Source of the DNA: a virus
Taxonomy: Duplodnaviria > Heunggongvirae > Uroviricota > Caudoviricetes
Strand: one strand, 5' to 3'
IMG/VR virus record: IMGVR_UViG_2734482568_000006
Length of the DNA: 47,553 nucleotides
In this document: in pieces, positions 1,508 through 39,654 of the stretch
Numbering within the stretch: the first letter of the stretch is position 1
Layout: each line of letters begins with the position of its first letter
Position numbers and translations under genes: made by a program
The notes under the pieces: generated by a model
Told to the model about the DNA's origin: nothing
The model's database searches: none
The model's input: only the letters and a program-made list of their open reading frames with translations

Positions 1508-2383
1508 ATGAGAAAGTTCATCCTTATTTCTATGATAACGTTAGCTAGTGTTAGTCTGGGAGCCTGCAGACAGAATGTCACCATAAAGCAGGATGCGCCA
1601 GGGCAGAAAGCTTTCCTGACTGACGGGCAGATTTACGATTTGCACAGTGGCAAAATTATTTCTAGCAGCGAGCTTTTGGCGGATCTTGCTACCGCTCGAC
1701 ATCTTATTATTGGTGAAAAACACGATAATGCCGAGCATCATCAGATTGAGCTTTGGCTTATTCAAAATTTGCTCATCCAGCGACCACAGGGGAGTGTGTT
1801 GCTTGAGATGTTGACGTCAGAGCAACAGCCCCGAGTTAACCAAGTTAAATGTTGGCTGAAAGATAATCCTGTGGTTCGAGATAGCCGTGTTCAGGAACTA
1901 CTTAACTGGCAAAAAGGGTGGTCCTGGGAGATGTATGGCGACATCGTCATGCAGCTATTACGTGGGCCTTACCCGCTGCTCAATGCCAACATTGGCCGGG
2001 AGCAGATGTTGGCACTGTACAAAAAAAACGAATTTCCTAAAGGAAAAAAATCCACTGCACCTGTGGTACAAGAAGCTCTGCGTGAAACCATCATATCTAT
2101 GCATGAAGGCAACCTTGAAAGCCAGCAACTGACGTCAATGCTCTCTATTCAGCAGCAGCGGGATCGCTACATGGCCCGCCAGCTTCTGAGTGCCCCGGTA
2201 CCGTCGTTGTTGATTGCAGGTGGTTATCACGCGTCAAAAAGCATGGGCGTACCGTTACACATGGAAGATCTTGCCACCGGCACCCATCCAGTGGTGTTGA
2301 TGCTTGCAGAAAAAGGAATGAACATCACAGTAGATCATGCTGACTACGTGTGGTTTGTAGCGCCAGATACAACAAAAAGGTAA
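1508..2383 (+). CDS. ChaN-like (haem-binding uptake, Tiki/ChaN family) lipoprotein
   Basis: Internal start MRKFILISMITLASVSLGAC gives a lipoprotein signal with lipobox; GEKHDNAEHH motif is typical of the ChaN/Cofac_haem_bdg family. Start chosen inside the 1466..2383 ORF. Confidence 0.6.
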   Translation: MRKFILISMITLASVSLGACRQNVTIKQDAPGQKAFLTDGQIYDLHSGKIISSSELLADLATARHLIIGEKHDNAEHHQIELWLIQNLLIQRPQGSVLLEMLTSEQQPRVNQVKCWLKDNPVVRDSRVQELLNWQKGWSWEMYGDIVMQLLRGPYPLLNANIGREQMLALYKKNEFPKGKKSTAPVVQEALRETIISMHEGNLESQQLTSMLSIQQQRDRYMARQLLSAPVPSLLIAGGYHASKSMGVPLHMEDLATGTHPVVLMLAEKGMNITVDHADYVWFVAPDTTKR

Positions 2384-2390
2384 ACCATGG

Positions 2391-3167
2391 ATGATGAATA
2401 TTCTCCACTTCTCACAGTCGGTAAAATGGAGCAGCTGGTTTATCTGTTCTCTACTGCTTCATGGACTGATTTTCCTTGCGTTTATCTGGCGTTTTTCCGA
2501 AGTTCAGCCCGCTATGTCTCCTGCACCGGCGATCATGCTGCAATGGGCAGAAATTATAGAGGCTCCTTCTTCTCCACTTTCGCTTCCGGTGGGAATCGCT
2601 CAACAGGAGTCCGCAGTGACAGAAGAAAAGCAACAAACTGAGGACAGACAACAACGTCCTGTCACTGAAGACAGTGATGCAACCATTGAAATAACTAGGA
2701 AGAAAAAGTCATCCGATGGAGAAAAGAAAAAGACACGTCCACCTCGTAAGATAAAGGCTCAAACCAGCGACAGCAACCCCACAGCCGTTTCCAGTAATGC
2801 TGCACCTCAGGCTCTGGTCGAATCGTCCCGTATTGCTGCGCCTTTTAACAGTGACTCAACAAAGCGAGATAATTCTGAGGCATCTTGGGAAAGCAGAGTA
2901 AAAGGCCACCTAAACCGTTATAAACGTTACCCTGGCGATGCCAGAAAACGTGCACGAACCGGCACAGCCGTCGTGACTTTTACCGTAAACACGGAAGGCA
3001 CTATTGTCAGTAGTTTCTTGGAAATCTCTTCAGGAACCCTTTCTCTTGACCGCGAAGCTATTGCTGTTTTAGAACGCGCTCAACCACTTCCCAAACCACC
3101 GCCTGAAATATTGGAGGGAGGATTATTTAAAGTAAAAATGCCGATTACCTTTAAGTTGAAGGAGTAA
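2391..3167 (+). CDS. TonB-family energy transducer (paralog)
   Basis: N-terminal TM segment with Ser/His (SLLLHG), charged Lys/Pro-rich linker, and a C-terminal TonB_C-like domain (GTAVVTFTVNTEGTIVS ... LPKPPPE). Confidence 0.7.
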   Translation: MMNILHFSQSVKWSSWFICSLLLHGLIFLAFIWRFSEVQPAMSPAPAIMLQWAEIIEAPSSPLSLPVGIAQQESAVTEEKQQTEDRQQRPVTEDSDATIEITRKKKSSDGEKKKTRPPRKIKAQTSDSNPTAVSSNAAPQALVESSRIAAPFNSDSTKRDNSEASWESRVKGHLNRYKRYPGDARKRARTGTAVVTFTVNTEGTIVSSFLEISSGTLSLDREAIAVLERAQPLPKPPPEILEGGLFKVKMPITFKLKE

Positions 3168-3335
3168 AGGGATAATTGGCCGTTCAAGTTCATTTAACTG
3201 AAATTTAATTTTCATTTTTATGCTGAACATTTTATCAAACTTTTCCACTGTCGAAAAAATCAAAAAGACAGTAGAACATAATTAATAAACAAATAGTTAT
3301 ACTTATCTTTATTAATATTATACCCAAGGAAATTT

Positions 3336-7828: not shown

Positions 7829-8330
7829 GTAAGCGTGCAGCAAGAACCGTATTGACGGGAATGTGTTATTCAGTCGGCAGTGCTACGCGCCAGGGGAGCA
7901 GTTCGCCGACCCGGTTTATCGGCCAGTCGGCTATGACGTCAAGGACATAGCGGAGGTAGCTTTCTGGCTCCACTCCGTTCAGTTTGCACGTCCCGATCAG
8001 GCTGTACAGCAGCGCTCCCCGCTCTCCTCCATGATCCGAACCGAAGAACAGGTAGTTTTTGCGGCCCAGACTGACCATCCGCAACGCATTTTCAGCGATG
8101 TTATTGTCCGCCTCAGCCCAGCCATCATCTGCATAGTACGTCAGCGCCGGCCACTGGTTCAGGGCATATGCGAACGCTTTCGCCAGTTCTGAGTGTCGCG
8201 ACAGGGTTTTCATCTTTTCACGCAGCCAGCTTTCCAGGGATTTCAGCAGCGGTTTCGTTTTCAACTGACGTTCGGCAAGGCGCTGTTTCAGCAGGAAGAT
8301 GTCGTCAGAAGAGATGTCGTTCATAAGCCC
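7829..8330 (-). mobile_element. IS66-family element, distal fragment (terminal IR plus 3-prime part of tnpC)
   Basis: Terminus begins GTAAGCG (7829-7835), recalled as the IS66-family end motif, followed inward by the tnpC 3-prime end. The partner part (tnpA, tnpB) is at 47035-47553 on the far side of the prophage. Confidence 0.7.
7866..8324 (-). pseudogene. tnpC: IS66-family transposase TnpC, C-terminal fragment (about 150 aa of about 520)
   Basis: DDGWAEADNNIAENALRMVSLGRKNYLFFGSDHGGERGALLYSLIGTCKLNGVEPESYLRYVLDVIADWPINRVGELLPW matches the conserved IS66 TnpC C-terminus; the upstream frame is closed by a stop at about 8380. Confidence 0.8.
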
Positions 8331-36480: not shown

Positions 36481-36981
36481 TCAGACTTTCGGCAAATCGT
36501 AACGACATAACCATTCATCCGCCGAACGGCGGGCCTCAAGACCGGGGAGTTTTACCCCCTTTGAATAAATCCAGCGGATATACTGCTTACAGGACGCGGG
36601 CATCTGCCCGGCATTGATAAGGCGCAGGAGCGTGGAGTTGCGAAAGTTCGTTTCACCGGCCCAGAAAATCCAGGAGGCCAGCGCCACCGTCTGACCACGG
36701 GTAAGCGGCACCTGAACATGACGATCGATAGCCGCAAAGGCCCATTTCATGTCCTTTTCCAGCAGCTCCAGACACTCTTCATCAGTTTTTGTCATCCCCG
36801 GTTTCACATCCGGGCCGGTATGGCCGTAACAGATGGTGGGGGTGCCGGTGGGATCAATGTACGTGGTGTTTTCTTTCCCTTCCCAGTAGCCGGTGTAGTG
36901 CGTGGCAATGGTGAACGTCCCGGCTCCGGCCAGAACAAGGGCAATCAGCTTTTTACGCAGGGGTGCGGGGAGTTTTGGCAT
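36481..36981 (-). CDS. SAR endolysin (phage lysozyme with N-terminal signal-anchor-release domain)
   Basis: N-terminal weakly hydrophobic segment (LIALVLAGAGTFTIATHY) followed by lysozyme-like core (EGKENTTYIDPTGTPTICYGHTG). Confidence 0.8.
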   Translation of the reverse strand: MPKLPAPLRKKLIALVLAGAGTFTIATHYTGYWEGKENTTYIDPTGTPTICYGHTGPDVKPGMTKTDEECLELLEKDMKWAFAAIDRHVQVPLTRGQTVALASWIFWAGETNFRNSTLLRLINAGQMPASCKQYIRWIYSKGVKLPGLEARRSADEWLCRYDLPKV

Positions 36982-37052
36982 TGTTACGCTGTCTCATGGT
37001 GTTCTCTGAGTCAGCGTAACCGTGAGGAAAAGGGGGCAGGATTTGCGGAATA

Positions 37053-37475
37053 TCAGAAAAGCCGTGGCTGCGTGCGTTCCTGATGCAGGCGACGCTGGTT
37101 GCGGATAACGGAGTAAATCTGCGTCTCTGACATCTGGTAGTGGCGGCGCAGGGTTTCAATTTTTTCGCCCTGGCTCCAGCGGGAAAAAATTTCATTATTG
37201 CGCAGTTCGGTGAAAAGGGATTCACCGACCGGGAGATAATAACCACGCCCGCCCATGTACCCGGCCTGTGCGGCTGCAACCTTACGGGCAAGCATTCCCG
37301 CCTGAGCAGGTTCAATCCCCTGACGGTGCAGTTCAGCACTGATCACATCAACCAGGTCCCGCAGCGTGCCGGGCCAGTTCTTTTTCAGCTCATCATCAGG
37401 AATATCATCCAGACGGTCAATCAGCGCGTGCAGCTGTTCGCTGTCACCAAACATGCTCATCTGTGTTTCAGCCAT
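37053..37475 (-). CDS. Mor/C-family transcriptional activator (C-like by position and length)
   Basis: C-terminal half GGRGYYLPVGESLFTELRNNEIFSRW...YQMSETQIYSVIRNQRR resembles the Mu Mor/C DNA-binding region; 140 aa; preceded by an intrinsic terminator. Confidence 0.7.
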   Translation of the reverse strand: MAETQMSMFGDSEQLHALIDRLDDIPDDELKKNWPGTLRDLVDVISAELHRQGIEPAQAGMLARKVAAAQAGYMGGRGYYLPVGESLFTELRNNEIFSRWSQGEKIETLRRHYQMSETQIYSVIRNQRRLHQERTQPRLF

Positions 37476-37504
37476 ACCCGCCTCCGGTCATCATTACACA
37501 GGGC

Positions 37505-37541
37505 AAGTTTAAAATAAAAATCCCGCGCTGTGGCGGGATTT
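37505..37541 (-). terminator. Rho-independent terminator between the gemA-like and Mor/C-like genes
   Basis: Minus-strand RNA forms aaatcccgc/gcgggattt stem (9 bp) followed by a U-rich run (ttattttaaactt). Confidence 0.5.
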
Positions 37542-37545
37542 GGGG

Positions 37546-38058
37546 TTAACGGGGGAATGATTTTTCATACAGCCTGCAAACACGCTCATAACTCATCACT
37601 GCACGTTCCGACATATCCAGGGCTGCCAGCATTTTGCGGCGGTGCCAGCGTTTGAGACGCTCCAGCACATCAGAGGCCAGCGCGGGTTGTTGCTCCAGCC
37701 ACTGCCAGTTAGCCACACCTTCGCCGTCGTTCTGCGCGGCCGTCTGCGATTTCACCCAGCGGTTAAGGGCCGTTTCCCCGCCATCAGAGATAAATCCCTG
37801 CCGGTGCATCACTTTCCAGATGGCGCGAATTTTGGCGGTCACCGTACCCGGTTTTAAGGCCCGGTTAACCGGCTTCTGACGCACTTTAAAACCGCGTTTT
37901 TTGAAAACATCCAGCACGCGGGATAACTCACCGGGTGACATATCACGGCAACTGGATTTGCCGGTGGCTGCCAGCAGCGCGGATGTATAGGTATCATGGT
38001 CAAGCTGTAGATCGCGTTTTGCGACATGTATTAAGGTAATCAGGGAAGCGCGATTCAT
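37546..38058 (-). CDS. gemA: GemA-like protein (Mu gp16 / DUF1018 family)
   Basis: LITLIHVAKRDLQLDHDTYTSALLAATGKSSCRDMSPGELSRVLDVFKKRGF matches the conserved N-terminal signature of Mu gp16-like proteins. Confidence 0.6.
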   Translation of the reverse strand: MNRASLITLIHVAKRDLQLDHDTYTSALLAATGKSSCRDMSPGELSRVLDVFKKRGFKVRQKPVNRALKPGTVTAKIRAIWKVMHRQGFISDGGETALNRWVKSQTAAQNDGEGVANWQWLEQQPALASDVLERLKRWHRRKMLAALDMSERAVMSYERVCRLYEKSFPR

Positions 38059-38070
38059 TATCGTGGCTCC

Positions 38071-38100
38071 ATAAAAAATGGGCGGTGTTACCGCACCGCC
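38071..38100 (-). terminator. Rho-independent terminator upstream of gemA
   Basis: Minus-strand RNA ggcggtg-cggtaa-caccgcc hairpin followed by cattttttat. Confidence 0.5.
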
Positions 38101-38128
38101 ATGTCAATTAACATAAAAGGAAAAATCT

Positions 38129-38368
38129 ATGTCAGATATAAAAAATGCACTTGATGTTGCCGCATTCACAATGGCTGGAAATCTTATGGTAACCCTGTTC
38201 GATAAGGGGCTGATTTCCCGTGAGGAGGCAATACATATTATCAATCTCGCTCAAAAAAACTCTACCCCGGAAAATGCAGAAGATATCCAGGATGGCTCAT
38301 ATATTAATACCGACTGGCATTTCGACAATCTCCGGGCCTGTATGGGGATTACCGCTGAAAAAGATTAA
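38129..38368 (+). CDS. Hypothetical protein (79 aa) on the strand opposite to the phage early genes
   Basis: ATG with aaaagg RBS; 3-prime end overlaps the convergent minus-strand gene by 20 bp. Confidence 0.45.
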   Translation: MSDIKNALDVAAFTMAGNLMVTLFDKGLISREEAIHIINLAQKNSTPENAEDIQDGSYINTDWHFDNLRACMGITAEKD

Positions 38369-38636
38369 AAATTTTTGCATAATGTTCAGATGTAAGAATT
38401 GCTGAACCATCAACACCGAGCCTACGGCGAACGTATTCCTCGCGGGCTATTTTATTATCCAGAGATACAGCATCCTTAATCAGGTTAATCTCCCGCTCCA
38501 TTATCAAAAGGGCTTCTCTGGCTGCAAGATTTTCTTTTATCGCATATTCGATAATGTCCCGCATACGTTCAAGCATGCCGATTTTAGCCAGTTCTTCGTC
38601 GATAGATTTAGGCGCAAATTTGATTTCTTTTTCCAT
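38349..38636 (-). CDS. Hypothetical helical protein (about 95 aa)
   Basis: Start placed at MEKEIKF, immediately after the stop of the upstream cysteine-rich ORF. Confidence 0.45.
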   Translation of the reverse strand: MEKEIKFAPKSIDEELAKIGMLERMRDIIEYAIKENLAAREALLIMEREINLIKDAVSLDNKIAREEYVRRRLGVDGSAILTSEHYAKIFNLFQR

Positions 38637-38637
38637 A

Positions 38638-38781
38638 TTATTCATCCTCACAATTTATACATGCAGTGTCGTCGCCCATATCGCAGTGGTTACATTTTAT
38701 CTCACCACAATGTGGGCACTCTTTCAGATACTCCGGGTCCTCATTTCCACAGGTGGGACATTCAACAATTTGCTCATCCAT
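38638..38781 (-). CDS. Cysteine-rich zinc-ribbon-like small protein (47 aa), absent from the ORF track
   Basis: MDEQIVECPTCGNEDPEYLKECPHCGEIKCNHCDMGDDTACINCEDE with four CxxC pairs; start overlaps the upstream gene end (ATGGATGA) and the stop abuts the next start. Confidence 0.4.
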   Translation of the reverse strand: MDEQIVECPTCGNEDPEYLKECPHCGEIKCNHCDMGDDTACINCEDE

Positions 38782-39106
38782 TATGTATCCCCTGTAATTC
38801 CGGCAAGGCCGAAAGATGGCACCAGTGCGTCACCTGTCCGTCCTCATCTTCAAGGCAGGCTCCGGTTTCTTCATCAATAAAAAAGCCTTCATACCCCATA
38901 TGGCCGATGCGCAGTTCCTGTTGGTCACCATACTGAACAATCAGCACGACAGCCTCCATATCAGGCGGAAATGCGTCATCCAGTGAATGCCAGGGATAAC
39001 CGCGCAAATCCCCGAAATAAACGCCGGTCAGCGTTCCGCCACAGAGCGGCATTCCGGCGGCACACACAAGAGGTTCATCTGATTCAACAAATAAGGTCGT
39101 TATCAT
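38774..39106 (-). CDS. Hypothetical protein (110 aa)
   Basis: Translationally coupled within the early accessory operon; no recognised domain. Confidence 0.45.
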   Translation of the reverse strand: MITTLFVESDEPLVCAAGMPLCGGTLTGVYFGDLRGYPWHSLDDAFPPDMEAVVLIVQYGDQQELRIGHMGYEGFFIDEETGACLEDEDGQVTHWCHLSALPELQGIHNG

Positions 39107-39654
39107 GGCGTTAACTCCCGTAATACAGCGTCCTCGGCAGTCCGGCGACGGTAATAAACTGCGTGAGCAGAATGTTCAGATATTCCAAACTTTTCGCCAA
39201 TTTCCCGGAATGACAGACGGCGTGGGTAATCGGAATCACGCAGCTCACGTATAAGACGTACATCATCATCAGATATGCGCGTGCCGGGGCGTAACTCTCC
39301 GCACTTTGTTAATCCAGCACCAATCATTCCTGCCCGACATCTGACAGAATCTTTATTACGTCCGAGATATTCTCCCATTTGCTGGCAGGTCATTGTTCTG
39401 GCATTTTTTCGAATAAACTTATCTTCATCAGGTGTAAATCTTGGGTGTTTATATTTCAGTAACTCCGGGTATGAACTGCGCAATACACCAGTCCGGTTAT
39501 ATACAGCCCAGACAGTTCTTTTTATTCTGGCAGCAATATCCTTAACCGGGGTGGATGAATAAAGCGCAATCAGCAGCGCATCTTCTTCAGGTGTCCACGG
39601 ACGGACATGAGCGGGGGCGCGACCTTTTAGTCCCATGGGTTGTAATTTCATCAT
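39103..39654 (-). CDS. Putative DNA-binding regulator with Mor/C-like C-terminal helix-turn-helix
   Basis: C-terminus DDVRLIRELRDSDYPRRLSFREIGEKFGISEHSAHAVYYRRR resembles the Mor/C-type HTH; N-terminal WTPEEDALLIALY motif. Confidence 0.45.
   Translation of the reverse strand: MMKLQPMGLKGRAPAHVRPWTPEEDALLIALYSSTPVKDIAARIKRTVWAVYNRTGVLRSSYPELLKYKHPRFTPDEDKFIRKNARTMTCQQMGEYLGRNKDSVRCRAGMIGAGLTKCGELRPGTRISDDDVRLIRELRDSDYPRRLSFREIGEKFGISEHSAHAVYYRRRTAEDAVLRELTP

Follow-up and report, generated by a model that had tools for sequence, protein, structure and literature searches.

The window analysed here, i.e. the whole stretch of 47,553 nucleotides of viral DNA (Caudoviricetes; IMG/VR record IMGVR_UViG_2734482568_000006), carries a Mu-like (transposable) Escherichia coli prophage with its genes on the minus strand. 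In its early region a small gene of 79 amino acids (aa) runs against the operon and meets a convergent gene of 95 aa tail to tail. By comparison of protein families and gene order we show that this locus is the prophage's version of the gp13-gp14-gp15 block of phage Mu, the distal part of the semi-essential early region directly before gemA-mor. Across the lineages compared, gp14 and gp15 come out as an obligate convergent pair, and a terminator-like hairpin that would be read in the gp15 sense is located inside the gp14 codons. In its predicted anatomy gp15 is thus a self-contained unit nested against the early operon, with its own Shine-Dalgarno sequence, open reading frame (ORF) and terminator-like hairpin. 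As a whole explanation we consider it somewhat probable that the identity with the Mu block, the nested antisense unit and a reciprocal interference between the two transcription units belong together. The gp13-gp15 arrangement itself is known from Mu. Modestly new are the embedded hairpin, the obligate gp14-gp15 pairing and a conflict between databases about the coding strand. The elements of the locus are the following:

38129..38368, plus strand: gp15-type gene of 79 aa, an ATG-started ORF opposed to the early operon
38349..38636, minus strand: gp14-type gene of 95 aa, the convergent partner ORF, whose last 20 bp overlap the end of gp15
38638..38781, minus strand: gp13-type zinc-ribbon gene of 47 aa, matching PHROG 5584 (E = 3.1e-26) and tightly coupled to gp14
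38419..38456, plus strand: T_L, a gp15-sense terminator-like hairpin, AGCCTACGG...CGCGGGCT followed by ATTTTATT, 50 nt beyond the gp15 stop codon
38071..38102, minus strand: T_R, an early-sense hairpin with six Ts resembling an intrinsic terminator, detected by a scan in the interval from the gp15 start to the Shine-Dalgarno sequence of gemA
38059..38128, unstranded: head-to-head spacer of 70 bp between gemA and gp15, which contains T_R and both Shine-Dalgarno sequences

Identity and coding strand of the convergent genes

Over 37400-39200 the window matches E. coli HH35 with 100% identity, and the RefSeq annotation of HH35 includes both convergent genes (WP_001280088.1 and WP_000409993.1). From the lysozyme gene to the gene for a MuB-like ATPase, all other genes annotated there are on the minus strand. 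The gene of 79 aa is therefore a plus-strand gene amid a minus-strand early region, as an earlier note on this DNA had described it. The same note had estimated the overlap with the 3' end of the 95-aa gene at about 20 bp, and the shared stretch 38349..38368 is exactly that long. On the minus strand the gp14-type frame is open over 38349..38651, corresponding to 100 aa from a GTG codon, and to 95 aa from the ATG at 38636 that RefSeq uses as start. The protein of 79 aa matched PHROG 32893 (E = 1.3e-45) and the protein of 95 aa matched PHROG 6075 (E = 5.4e-44), in both cases over the full length. Because of these matches and the RefSeq annotation the two ORFs are, by all indications, genuine genes and not chance ORFs.

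Homology searches led to Mu. The 95-aa protein shares 49% identity with Mu gp14 (E15; E = 1e-30), and the 47-aa protein shares 88% with the 41 C-terminal residues of Mu gp13 (E14). The Mu gene corresponding in position to the plus-strand gene is an 88-aa ORF on the complement strand (7896-8162), which overlaps gp14 by 62 bp. It lies just before gemA and is called Mup15/gp15 (NP_050619.1) in RefSeq NC_000929.1 and 'F-134' in the 1991 record M64097. A complement-strand gene at the gp15 position is also annotated in SfMu and in Yersinia phage Tongde. Pairwise BLASTP of the 79-aa protein against Mu gp15 gave no significant match. When the window gp15 family was aligned with Mu gp15 using hhalign, a probability of 96.9% (E = 1.8e-10) was obtained over columns 1-56. 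A hidden Markov model (HMM) of the window-type family scored Mu gp15 with 20.3 bits and an intermediate allele of 92 aa from lineage L023 with 36 bits. Mu gp15 (PHROG 8747) cross-matches PHROG 32893 at E = 6e-4, and the L023 allele matches both families. The block that carries this allele is otherwise near-identical to that of the window and has the same hairpin. In a structure search of BFVD the Mu F-134 model ranked 4th (TMq 0.59), at an E value of 1.8, which is not significant. The homology claim is thus based on the profiles, the intermediate allele and synteny, and not on pairwise BLASTP. We treat the 79-aa gene as a diverged gp15, whose N-terminal half appears to be common with Mu gp15 and whose C-terminal half is different.

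Although Mu is the paradigm phage, GenBank and RefSeq differ on the coding strand at gp15. GenBank AF083977.1 annotates a forward 55-aa 'Mu_54' (7960-8127; L024 3961-4128) with a ribosome-binding site wholly inside gp15. This annotation implies that the plus-strand ORF is a non-coding shadow and that the true gene is on the early strand. The frame of Mu_54 has its wobble positions in common with gp15, as is usual for shadow ORFs, which would fit this view. In the comparison, however, the gp15 frame was open in 13 of 13 homologous loci, and no early-sense frame was consistently open; inside the window gp15 the three early-sense frames run without a stop for at most 40, 54 and 17 codons. Conservation at the protein level follows the gp15 frame, a good Shine-Dalgarno sequence precedes every gp15 homolog, and Mu_54 had no significant PHROG match and scored -0.4 bits against the family profile. 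A shadow ORF is thus hardly conceivable. By these comparative data gp15 is a real gene and its coding strand is settled; the forward Mu_54 call in AF083977.1 should be reconsidered.

Proteins of the gp15 family are 67-92 aa long and have the motifs FDVAAFTLAGNLL-TL--KG-IS-EEA and WHLDNL in common. The family is small: among 1.84 billion representative proteins, searched exhaustively with HMMER, only 9 gp15 relatives were found. gp15 is acidic and predicted to form four helices (AlphaFold2, AF2; mean predicted local distance difference test, pLDDT, of 80). gp14 is predicted to be helical with one long central helix (pLDDT 86). The AF2 model of gp14 had no match in the PDB at E < 0.4, and comparison of both proteins with solved or predicted folds yielded nothing past generic helical bundles. 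For gp15 and gp14 no functional family was found in Pfam, PHROGs and NCBIfam, with nothing above threshold in Pfam and NCBIfam. The PADLOC defence models gave 0 matches for gp13, gp14 and gp15, and none of the block's proteins looked like a DNA-binding protein. When PDB sequences were searched with a profile, weak matches (E 0.03-0.1) pointed to the lid of Hsp70; this homology was rejected as probably an effect of a KG-LS-EE motif. To our knowledge no function has been assigned to the semi-essential early genes of Mu including gp13-gp15. Because gp14 and gp15 always occur together, gp15 most likely acts on or together with gp14.

A run of seven As (A7) is located inside gp15 (window 38253-38259, codons Q-K-N). 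Three database proteins of 91-92 aa from different sources (P0008, P0009 and P0010) correspond to a deletion of one A at this run, by which reading shifts into the 38220-38405 frame and the WHxDNL motif is lost. These frameshifts could be pseudogenes, sequencing errors or slippage.

Convergence, hairpins and the mosaic block

Genomic context was available for 12 lineages: the window, L021, L023, L025, L027, L080-L083, Mu, SfMu and L035. One of these was represented by 679 blocks of the collection. A gp14 homolog is the convergent partner of gp15 in 12 of 12 contexts; the two genes always overlap, by 4-98 bp, and are in no case separated. The arrangement holds in lineages down to about 31% gp15 identity (31-37% for the most distant ones) as well as in Mu. 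Since the conserved core of gp14 does not extend into the overlap, and the tail that does so differs among lineages in both length and sequence, the overlap itself appears to be incidental, and the abutment of the two genes is presumably the conserved feature. On its other side gp15 keeps a distance of 68-74 bp wherever gemA follows (window 70, Mu 70, SfMu 69, L021 74, L023 71, L025 69, L027 71 and L081 68 bp). In the distant members L082 and L083 another gene stands before gemA. We also considered that the module might be general to gemA-bearing phages. This was rejected, as it was found in only 1 of 47 gemA loci from other species (Klebsiella, L035). Judged by this distribution the module is a feature of enterobacterial Mu-type phages and not of all transposable phages.

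Downstream of gp15 the hairpin T_L is embedded in gp14. In the window the hairpin proper spans 38419-38448 within the gp14 codons for I-A-R-E-E-Y-V-R-R-R-L. Across lineages hairpins of the pattern AGCTCGCG...CGCGAGCT with a T-rich run behind them are found 22-85 nt beyond the gp15 stop codon. Their arms are provided by the gp14 codons for A-R-D/E and R-R-E/R-L and are in register in 10 of 11 lineages. Within the alignment 86% of the cells are paired, compared to 35-50% with a slid partner. Four pairs exhibit compensatory changes, a number that none of 500 shuffles reached. In columns 17/40, for example, C-G is replaced by U-A through a synonymous change of the Ala codon that is coupled to an E/R replacement. 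Resampling of synonymous codons at fixed gp14 protein sequence provided on average 4-7 pairs, compared to 8-11 pairs observed; the actual pairing exceeded the resampled one in 10 of 11 lineages (P <= 0.03). Where T_L pairs, the rare Arg codon AGG is chosen. A U-rich tail after the hairpin is present only on the gp15-sense strand. In Mu, T_L (7839-7873; L024 3840-3874) coincides with a TransTermHP terminator inside gp14 that GenBank lists as forward, and its U-run (TTTCATTTTG) is on the complementary, gp15-sense strand. The codon comparisons show a hairpin that appears to be maintained in gp14 through biased codon choice, a clean case of a structural RNA/DNA signal overprinted on coding sequence.

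For the opposite sense the earlier note had proposed a minus-strand terminator immediately after the plus-strand gene and upstream of gemA. A terminator-like hairpin upstream of gemA is present, but it lies upstream of the start of the plus-strand gene and not after the gene. The stem of this hairpin, T_R, reads GGCGGTG-CGGTAA-CACCGCC on the minus strand (38100..38081), followed by CATTTTTTAT down to 38071. It comprises 7 bp with 6 GC pairs, a 6-nt loop and the tail CAUUUUUUAU. If a one-base bulge is allowed, the stem reaches 38102/38079. T_R lies 12 nt upstream of the Shine-Dalgarno sequence of gemA. Folding yielded a free energy (dG) of -13.3 kcal/mol at a z-score of -1.24, and the scan returned 5 terminator-like sites compared to 3.8 ± 1.6 expected. 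Alone, T_R is not above chance, and its reality rests on conservation, since a GC hairpin with a T-rich tail is found at the same position in all 12 lineages including Mu. The 20-nt hairpin core is shared by the window, L023, L080, L081, L025, L035, L027 and Mu. L021 carries a variant of equal length in which the changes preserve pairing, and in L082 and L083 the corresponding position is taken by GC-rich hairpins of other sequence. On the early-sense strand the window (T6), L023 and L083 have a strong T-rich run, L027, L080 and L081 a moderate one, and L025, L021 and Mu a weak one. In 8 of 9 lineages the arms GGCGGTG/CACCGCC show no variation, and 94% of the cells in the alignment are paired. 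Covariation was not significant; the stem hardly varies. In Mu the hairpin (GGCGGTGTTGCAGCACCGCC, 8193-8212) is located directly before the gemA ribosome-binding site. A search of 37400-38900 against Rfam returned nothing above threshold.

Together with the three genes T_R forms part of a mosaic block, next to which gemA and mor follow:

38032..38790, unstranded: mosaic block of 760 bp with gp13, gp14, gp15, T_R and gemA codons 1-9
37546..38058, minus strand: gemA (gp16 family; Pfam GemA, E = 1.8e-28), RefSeq-annotated, the first gene beyond T_R in early direction
37053-37475, minus strand: mor (Pfam Mor, E = 6.7e-31), with the lysozyme gene next

The block sets this prophage apart from the common Sp18-type relatives in E. 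coli: homology to L004, L005 and L006 ends at 38031 (inside gemA codon 9) and restarts at 38791 or 39097. The GC content of the block is 39-43%, compared to 51-60% in the flanks. The block is present in 14 of 5426 complete E. coli genomes and the flanking Sp18-type prophage in 232 of them. Most E. coli Sp18-type relatives contain three or four unrelated minus-strand genes in its slot. In relatives without the block the last slot gene is translationally coupled to gemA and the hairpin is absent, i.e. T_R travels with the gp15 block. The unit that varies among related E. coli prophages is hence three genes plus T_R plus the 5' end of gemA and not one gene; the presence or absence of a single gene between collinear phages, as expected for a moron, was not found. 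The 47-aa four-cysteine ORF of gp13 type (38638-38781) is not in the RefSeq annotation of the identical HH35 locus, and RefSeq annotations of these prophages omit this gp13 homolog.

These results also bear on the proposal in the earlier note of a moron-like insertion or antisense arrangement. The antisense arrangement is upheld by its conservation in all contexts. The insertion of a foreign gene into a Mu backbone is not, because the gene is the counterpart of Mu gp15 and sits with homologs of gp13 and gp14 as in Mu, SfMu and further phages of Mu type. Moron-like is thus the anatomy (opposite orientation, AT-rich block, own Shine-Dalgarno sequence and own terminator-like hairpin) but not the history.

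Other rearrangements were seen around the block. In E. coli 2018-166 (L018 2289-2985) an IS1A element abuts the gp15 start, and the genes from gemA to the late genes up to the DNA-circularization gene are missing. In two viral contigs (L015 and L016, positions 1 to ~385) gp15 is cut at residue 21 and joined to unrelated sequence. Between gemA and mor of the window a 70-bp spacer holds a second early-sense hairpin (37518-37541, minus strand, tail to ~37508), AAATCCCGC-CACAGC-GCGGGATTT followed by TTATTTT, with a dG of -13.5 and a z-score of -4.2. Early-sense hairpins are thus located on both sides of gemA. In Mu, gemA and mor overlap and leave no spacer for such a hairpin. L027 has the same hairpin with a perfect TATAAT directly after it. 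The gemA-mor spacer is an insertion hot spot: in L017 an ORF for a putative transposase of 445 aa is located exactly there (1975-3312), and in E. coli M1 (L019 2916-3257) an opposite-strand gene of 113 aa (WP_053264796.1). Further along, the window has a Mor-family gene within 36481-37475 with the lysozyme gene directly next, and Mu has gp18-gp20 and the Mor-family activator C before the endolysin gene.

A model of reciprocal interference and its alternatives

A convergent junction with gp14 that lacks a terminator forces antisense overlap. Since gp14 and gp15 are in no case separated, the mRNAs of the early operon and of gp15 would have a complementary stretch of ~300 nt or more, bounded by T_L and the start site of gp15. 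In our model gp15 would be transcribed in its own sense, independently of the early promoter Pe. Mu lysogens exhibit low-level Pe transcription (PMC3820752); a search of the literature found no strand-specific transcriptome of Mu. In the lysogen, in which Pe is repressed, gp15 transcription together with T_R may stop leaky early transcripts that would reach gemA and Mor, such that oncoming polymerases and T_R would limit how much early transcription leaks into gemA and Mor, the activator of the late genes. Induction would reverse the situation: heavy early transcription would silence gp15 via collision and antisense pairing, and a fraction of the polymerases would read through T_R. The findings thereby lead to a concrete hypothesis, open to experiment, of how the early operon and gemA-mor divide transcription between them. 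A bolder version, in which gp14, gp15, T_L and T_R constitute a conserved convergent-transcription switch and a new checkpoint of the Mu-type lytic cascade, with gp15 as the sole early-region gene made in the lysogen, we regard as doubtful. If it were true, leaky early transcripts would be kept off gemA-mor until Pe is at full strength.

Several observations weigh against the interference model. No gp15 promoter was identified, so that gp15-sense transcription is what we infer. The predicted promoter must be in or adjoining the spacer 38059..38128. A scan for -35/-10 elements in 10 lineages found no positionally conserved sigma-70-like site on either strand of the spacer or of the gemA 5' end, and the one 9/12 sigma-70 match in the window, inside gemA (37968-37997, plus strand), is not conserved. 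T_L is weaker in the window (8 of 11 pairs, dG of about -10) than in close relatives (9 of 11 pairs, dG of -16.8) and is absent in L082. The block is dispensable, given that most related E. coli prophages are without it, and its two convergent proteins match, as described above, no family of known function, defence model or solved fold. In Mu, T_R has a poor tail (CCCTTTCC), and the early transcript is reported to encode Mor (PMC2582627). For these two reasons T_R cannot be an efficient terminator in Mu and must be leaky there. Finally, the near-invariance of the T_R stem leaves room for sequence-specific recognition.

The last two points lead to an alternative in which T_R is not a terminator but a palindromic operator that serves divergent promoters of gp15 and gemA, or a 5' stabilising stem-loop of a 'semi-early' gemA transcript. 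The arms of T_R are as invariant as described even though GemA (42-56% identity) and gp15 (31-44%) have diverged. In the GenBank record of Mu a feature labelled 'Semi-early promoter, PMID 9454718' (8151-8217) spans the hairpin, and the gem operon was reported to be constitutive in lysogens (Paolozzi & Ghelardini 1992, as far as cited in PMC3820752). The weak U-tract of Mu and the origin of Mor from the early transcript fit as well. In nearly all lineages, however, the stem has a T-rich run behind it when read in the early sense, in the window a canonical T6, and L021, L082 and L083 keep a hairpin with other sequences. Furthermore, the promoter scan gave no conserved sigma-70 site, gp15 is acidic, and the block encodes no DNA-binding look-alike. 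This makes a purely non-terminating role of T_R distinctly unlikely.

In another alternative gp15 would be plain moron or lysogenic-conversion cargo, an accessory gene that the repressed prophage expresses to the benefit of host or prophage, e.g. for superinfection exclusion or anti-defence, with an orientation and terminators that only insulate it and with no control of gemA-mor. The low GC content of the block, the opposite orientation with the own terminator-like T_L and the patchy distribution (14 versus 232 genomes) would be expected for cargo. Relatives carry other opposite-strand genes near gemA, such as the 113-aa gene of strain M1, and exclusion is conferred by overlapping genes around the early region in transposable phages of Pseudomonas (PMC9936078). 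What speaks against cargo is that gp15 is never alone: it is always tail-to-tail with gp14, in the most distant lineages and in Mu, and the polymorphic unit in E. coli is the three-gene block. PADLOC provided no matches, and T_R, needless for a simple cargo gene, always accompanies it on the opposite strand. We therefore hold the cargo reading to be unlikely. The strict co-occurrence and the convergent overlap in every context would also suit an antagonistic pair of the toxin-antidote or effector-inhibitor kind. Here gp14 would be a lytic product of Pe; in the lysogen, gp15 would counteract leaky gp14 both as protein and as antisense RNA. Both proteins are small and predicted to be helical, and the low-level Pe transcription in lysogens is in agreement with this idea. 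Neither of them is similar, however, to any toxin, antitoxin or defence family, and the gp15 variants frameshifted at the A7 run speak against an essential antidote, unless they are sequencing errors. An antagonistic pair thus appears quite improbable.

Comparison with known systems

Morons, in the concept of Hendrix and colleagues, are genes with their own promoter and terminator that are inserted between backbone genes and expressed from the prophage. The gp15 unit resembles them as a compact low-GC unit with its own terminator-like hairpin and a patchy occurrence among related prophages. It differs in that it runs against the operon, is always linked to gp14 and T_R, is ancient, occurs in the type phage as well, and is exchanged as a block of three genes.

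Convergent transcription and antisense RNA act as switches in other temperate phages, namely at pR/pL of coliphage 186 and at oop/cII of lambda. Common to these systems and the locus described here are face-to-face units with overlapping RNAs at a decision point of the phage expression cascade. In contrast, gp14 and gp15 overlap at the 3' ends of two protein genes far from the immunity region, and interference between them is what we infer. For the Mu-like Pseudomonas phage Fc02, strand-specific RNA-seq revealed opposite-strand overlapping genes, of which one is expressed in the lysogen, and an exclusion activity (PMC9936078). Fc02 is likewise a transposable phage with opposite-strand overlapping genes, but its locus adjoins the repressor and ner genes and is not placed before gemA, and no sequence similarity to the gp14/gp15 locus was found.

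The closest counterpart is Mu itself. In both phages gp15 is head-to-head with gemA over a spacer of ~70 bp and overlaps gp14 tail-to-tail, the 20-nt hairpin core GGCGGTG...CACCGCC is the same, and gp13 and gp14 are clear homologs. Within gp15 the N-terminal 55 residues of Mu can be aligned with the window protein, whereas the C-terminal halves are unrelated. The WHxDNL motif belongs to the window-type C-terminal half and differs from Mu gp15, and the two proteins fall into different families (PHROG 32893 for the window, 8747 for Mu). The gp14/gp15 overlap measures 20 bp in the window, compared to 62 bp in Mu, and the U-tract of T_R is strong in the former (T6) and weak in the latter. The surroundings differ as well: the window has a backbone of the Sp18-type E. 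coli prophage with a gemA-mor spacer and the second hairpin, a spacer that Mu is without, and its lysozyme gene follows directly after mor, where Mu has the gp18-C block.

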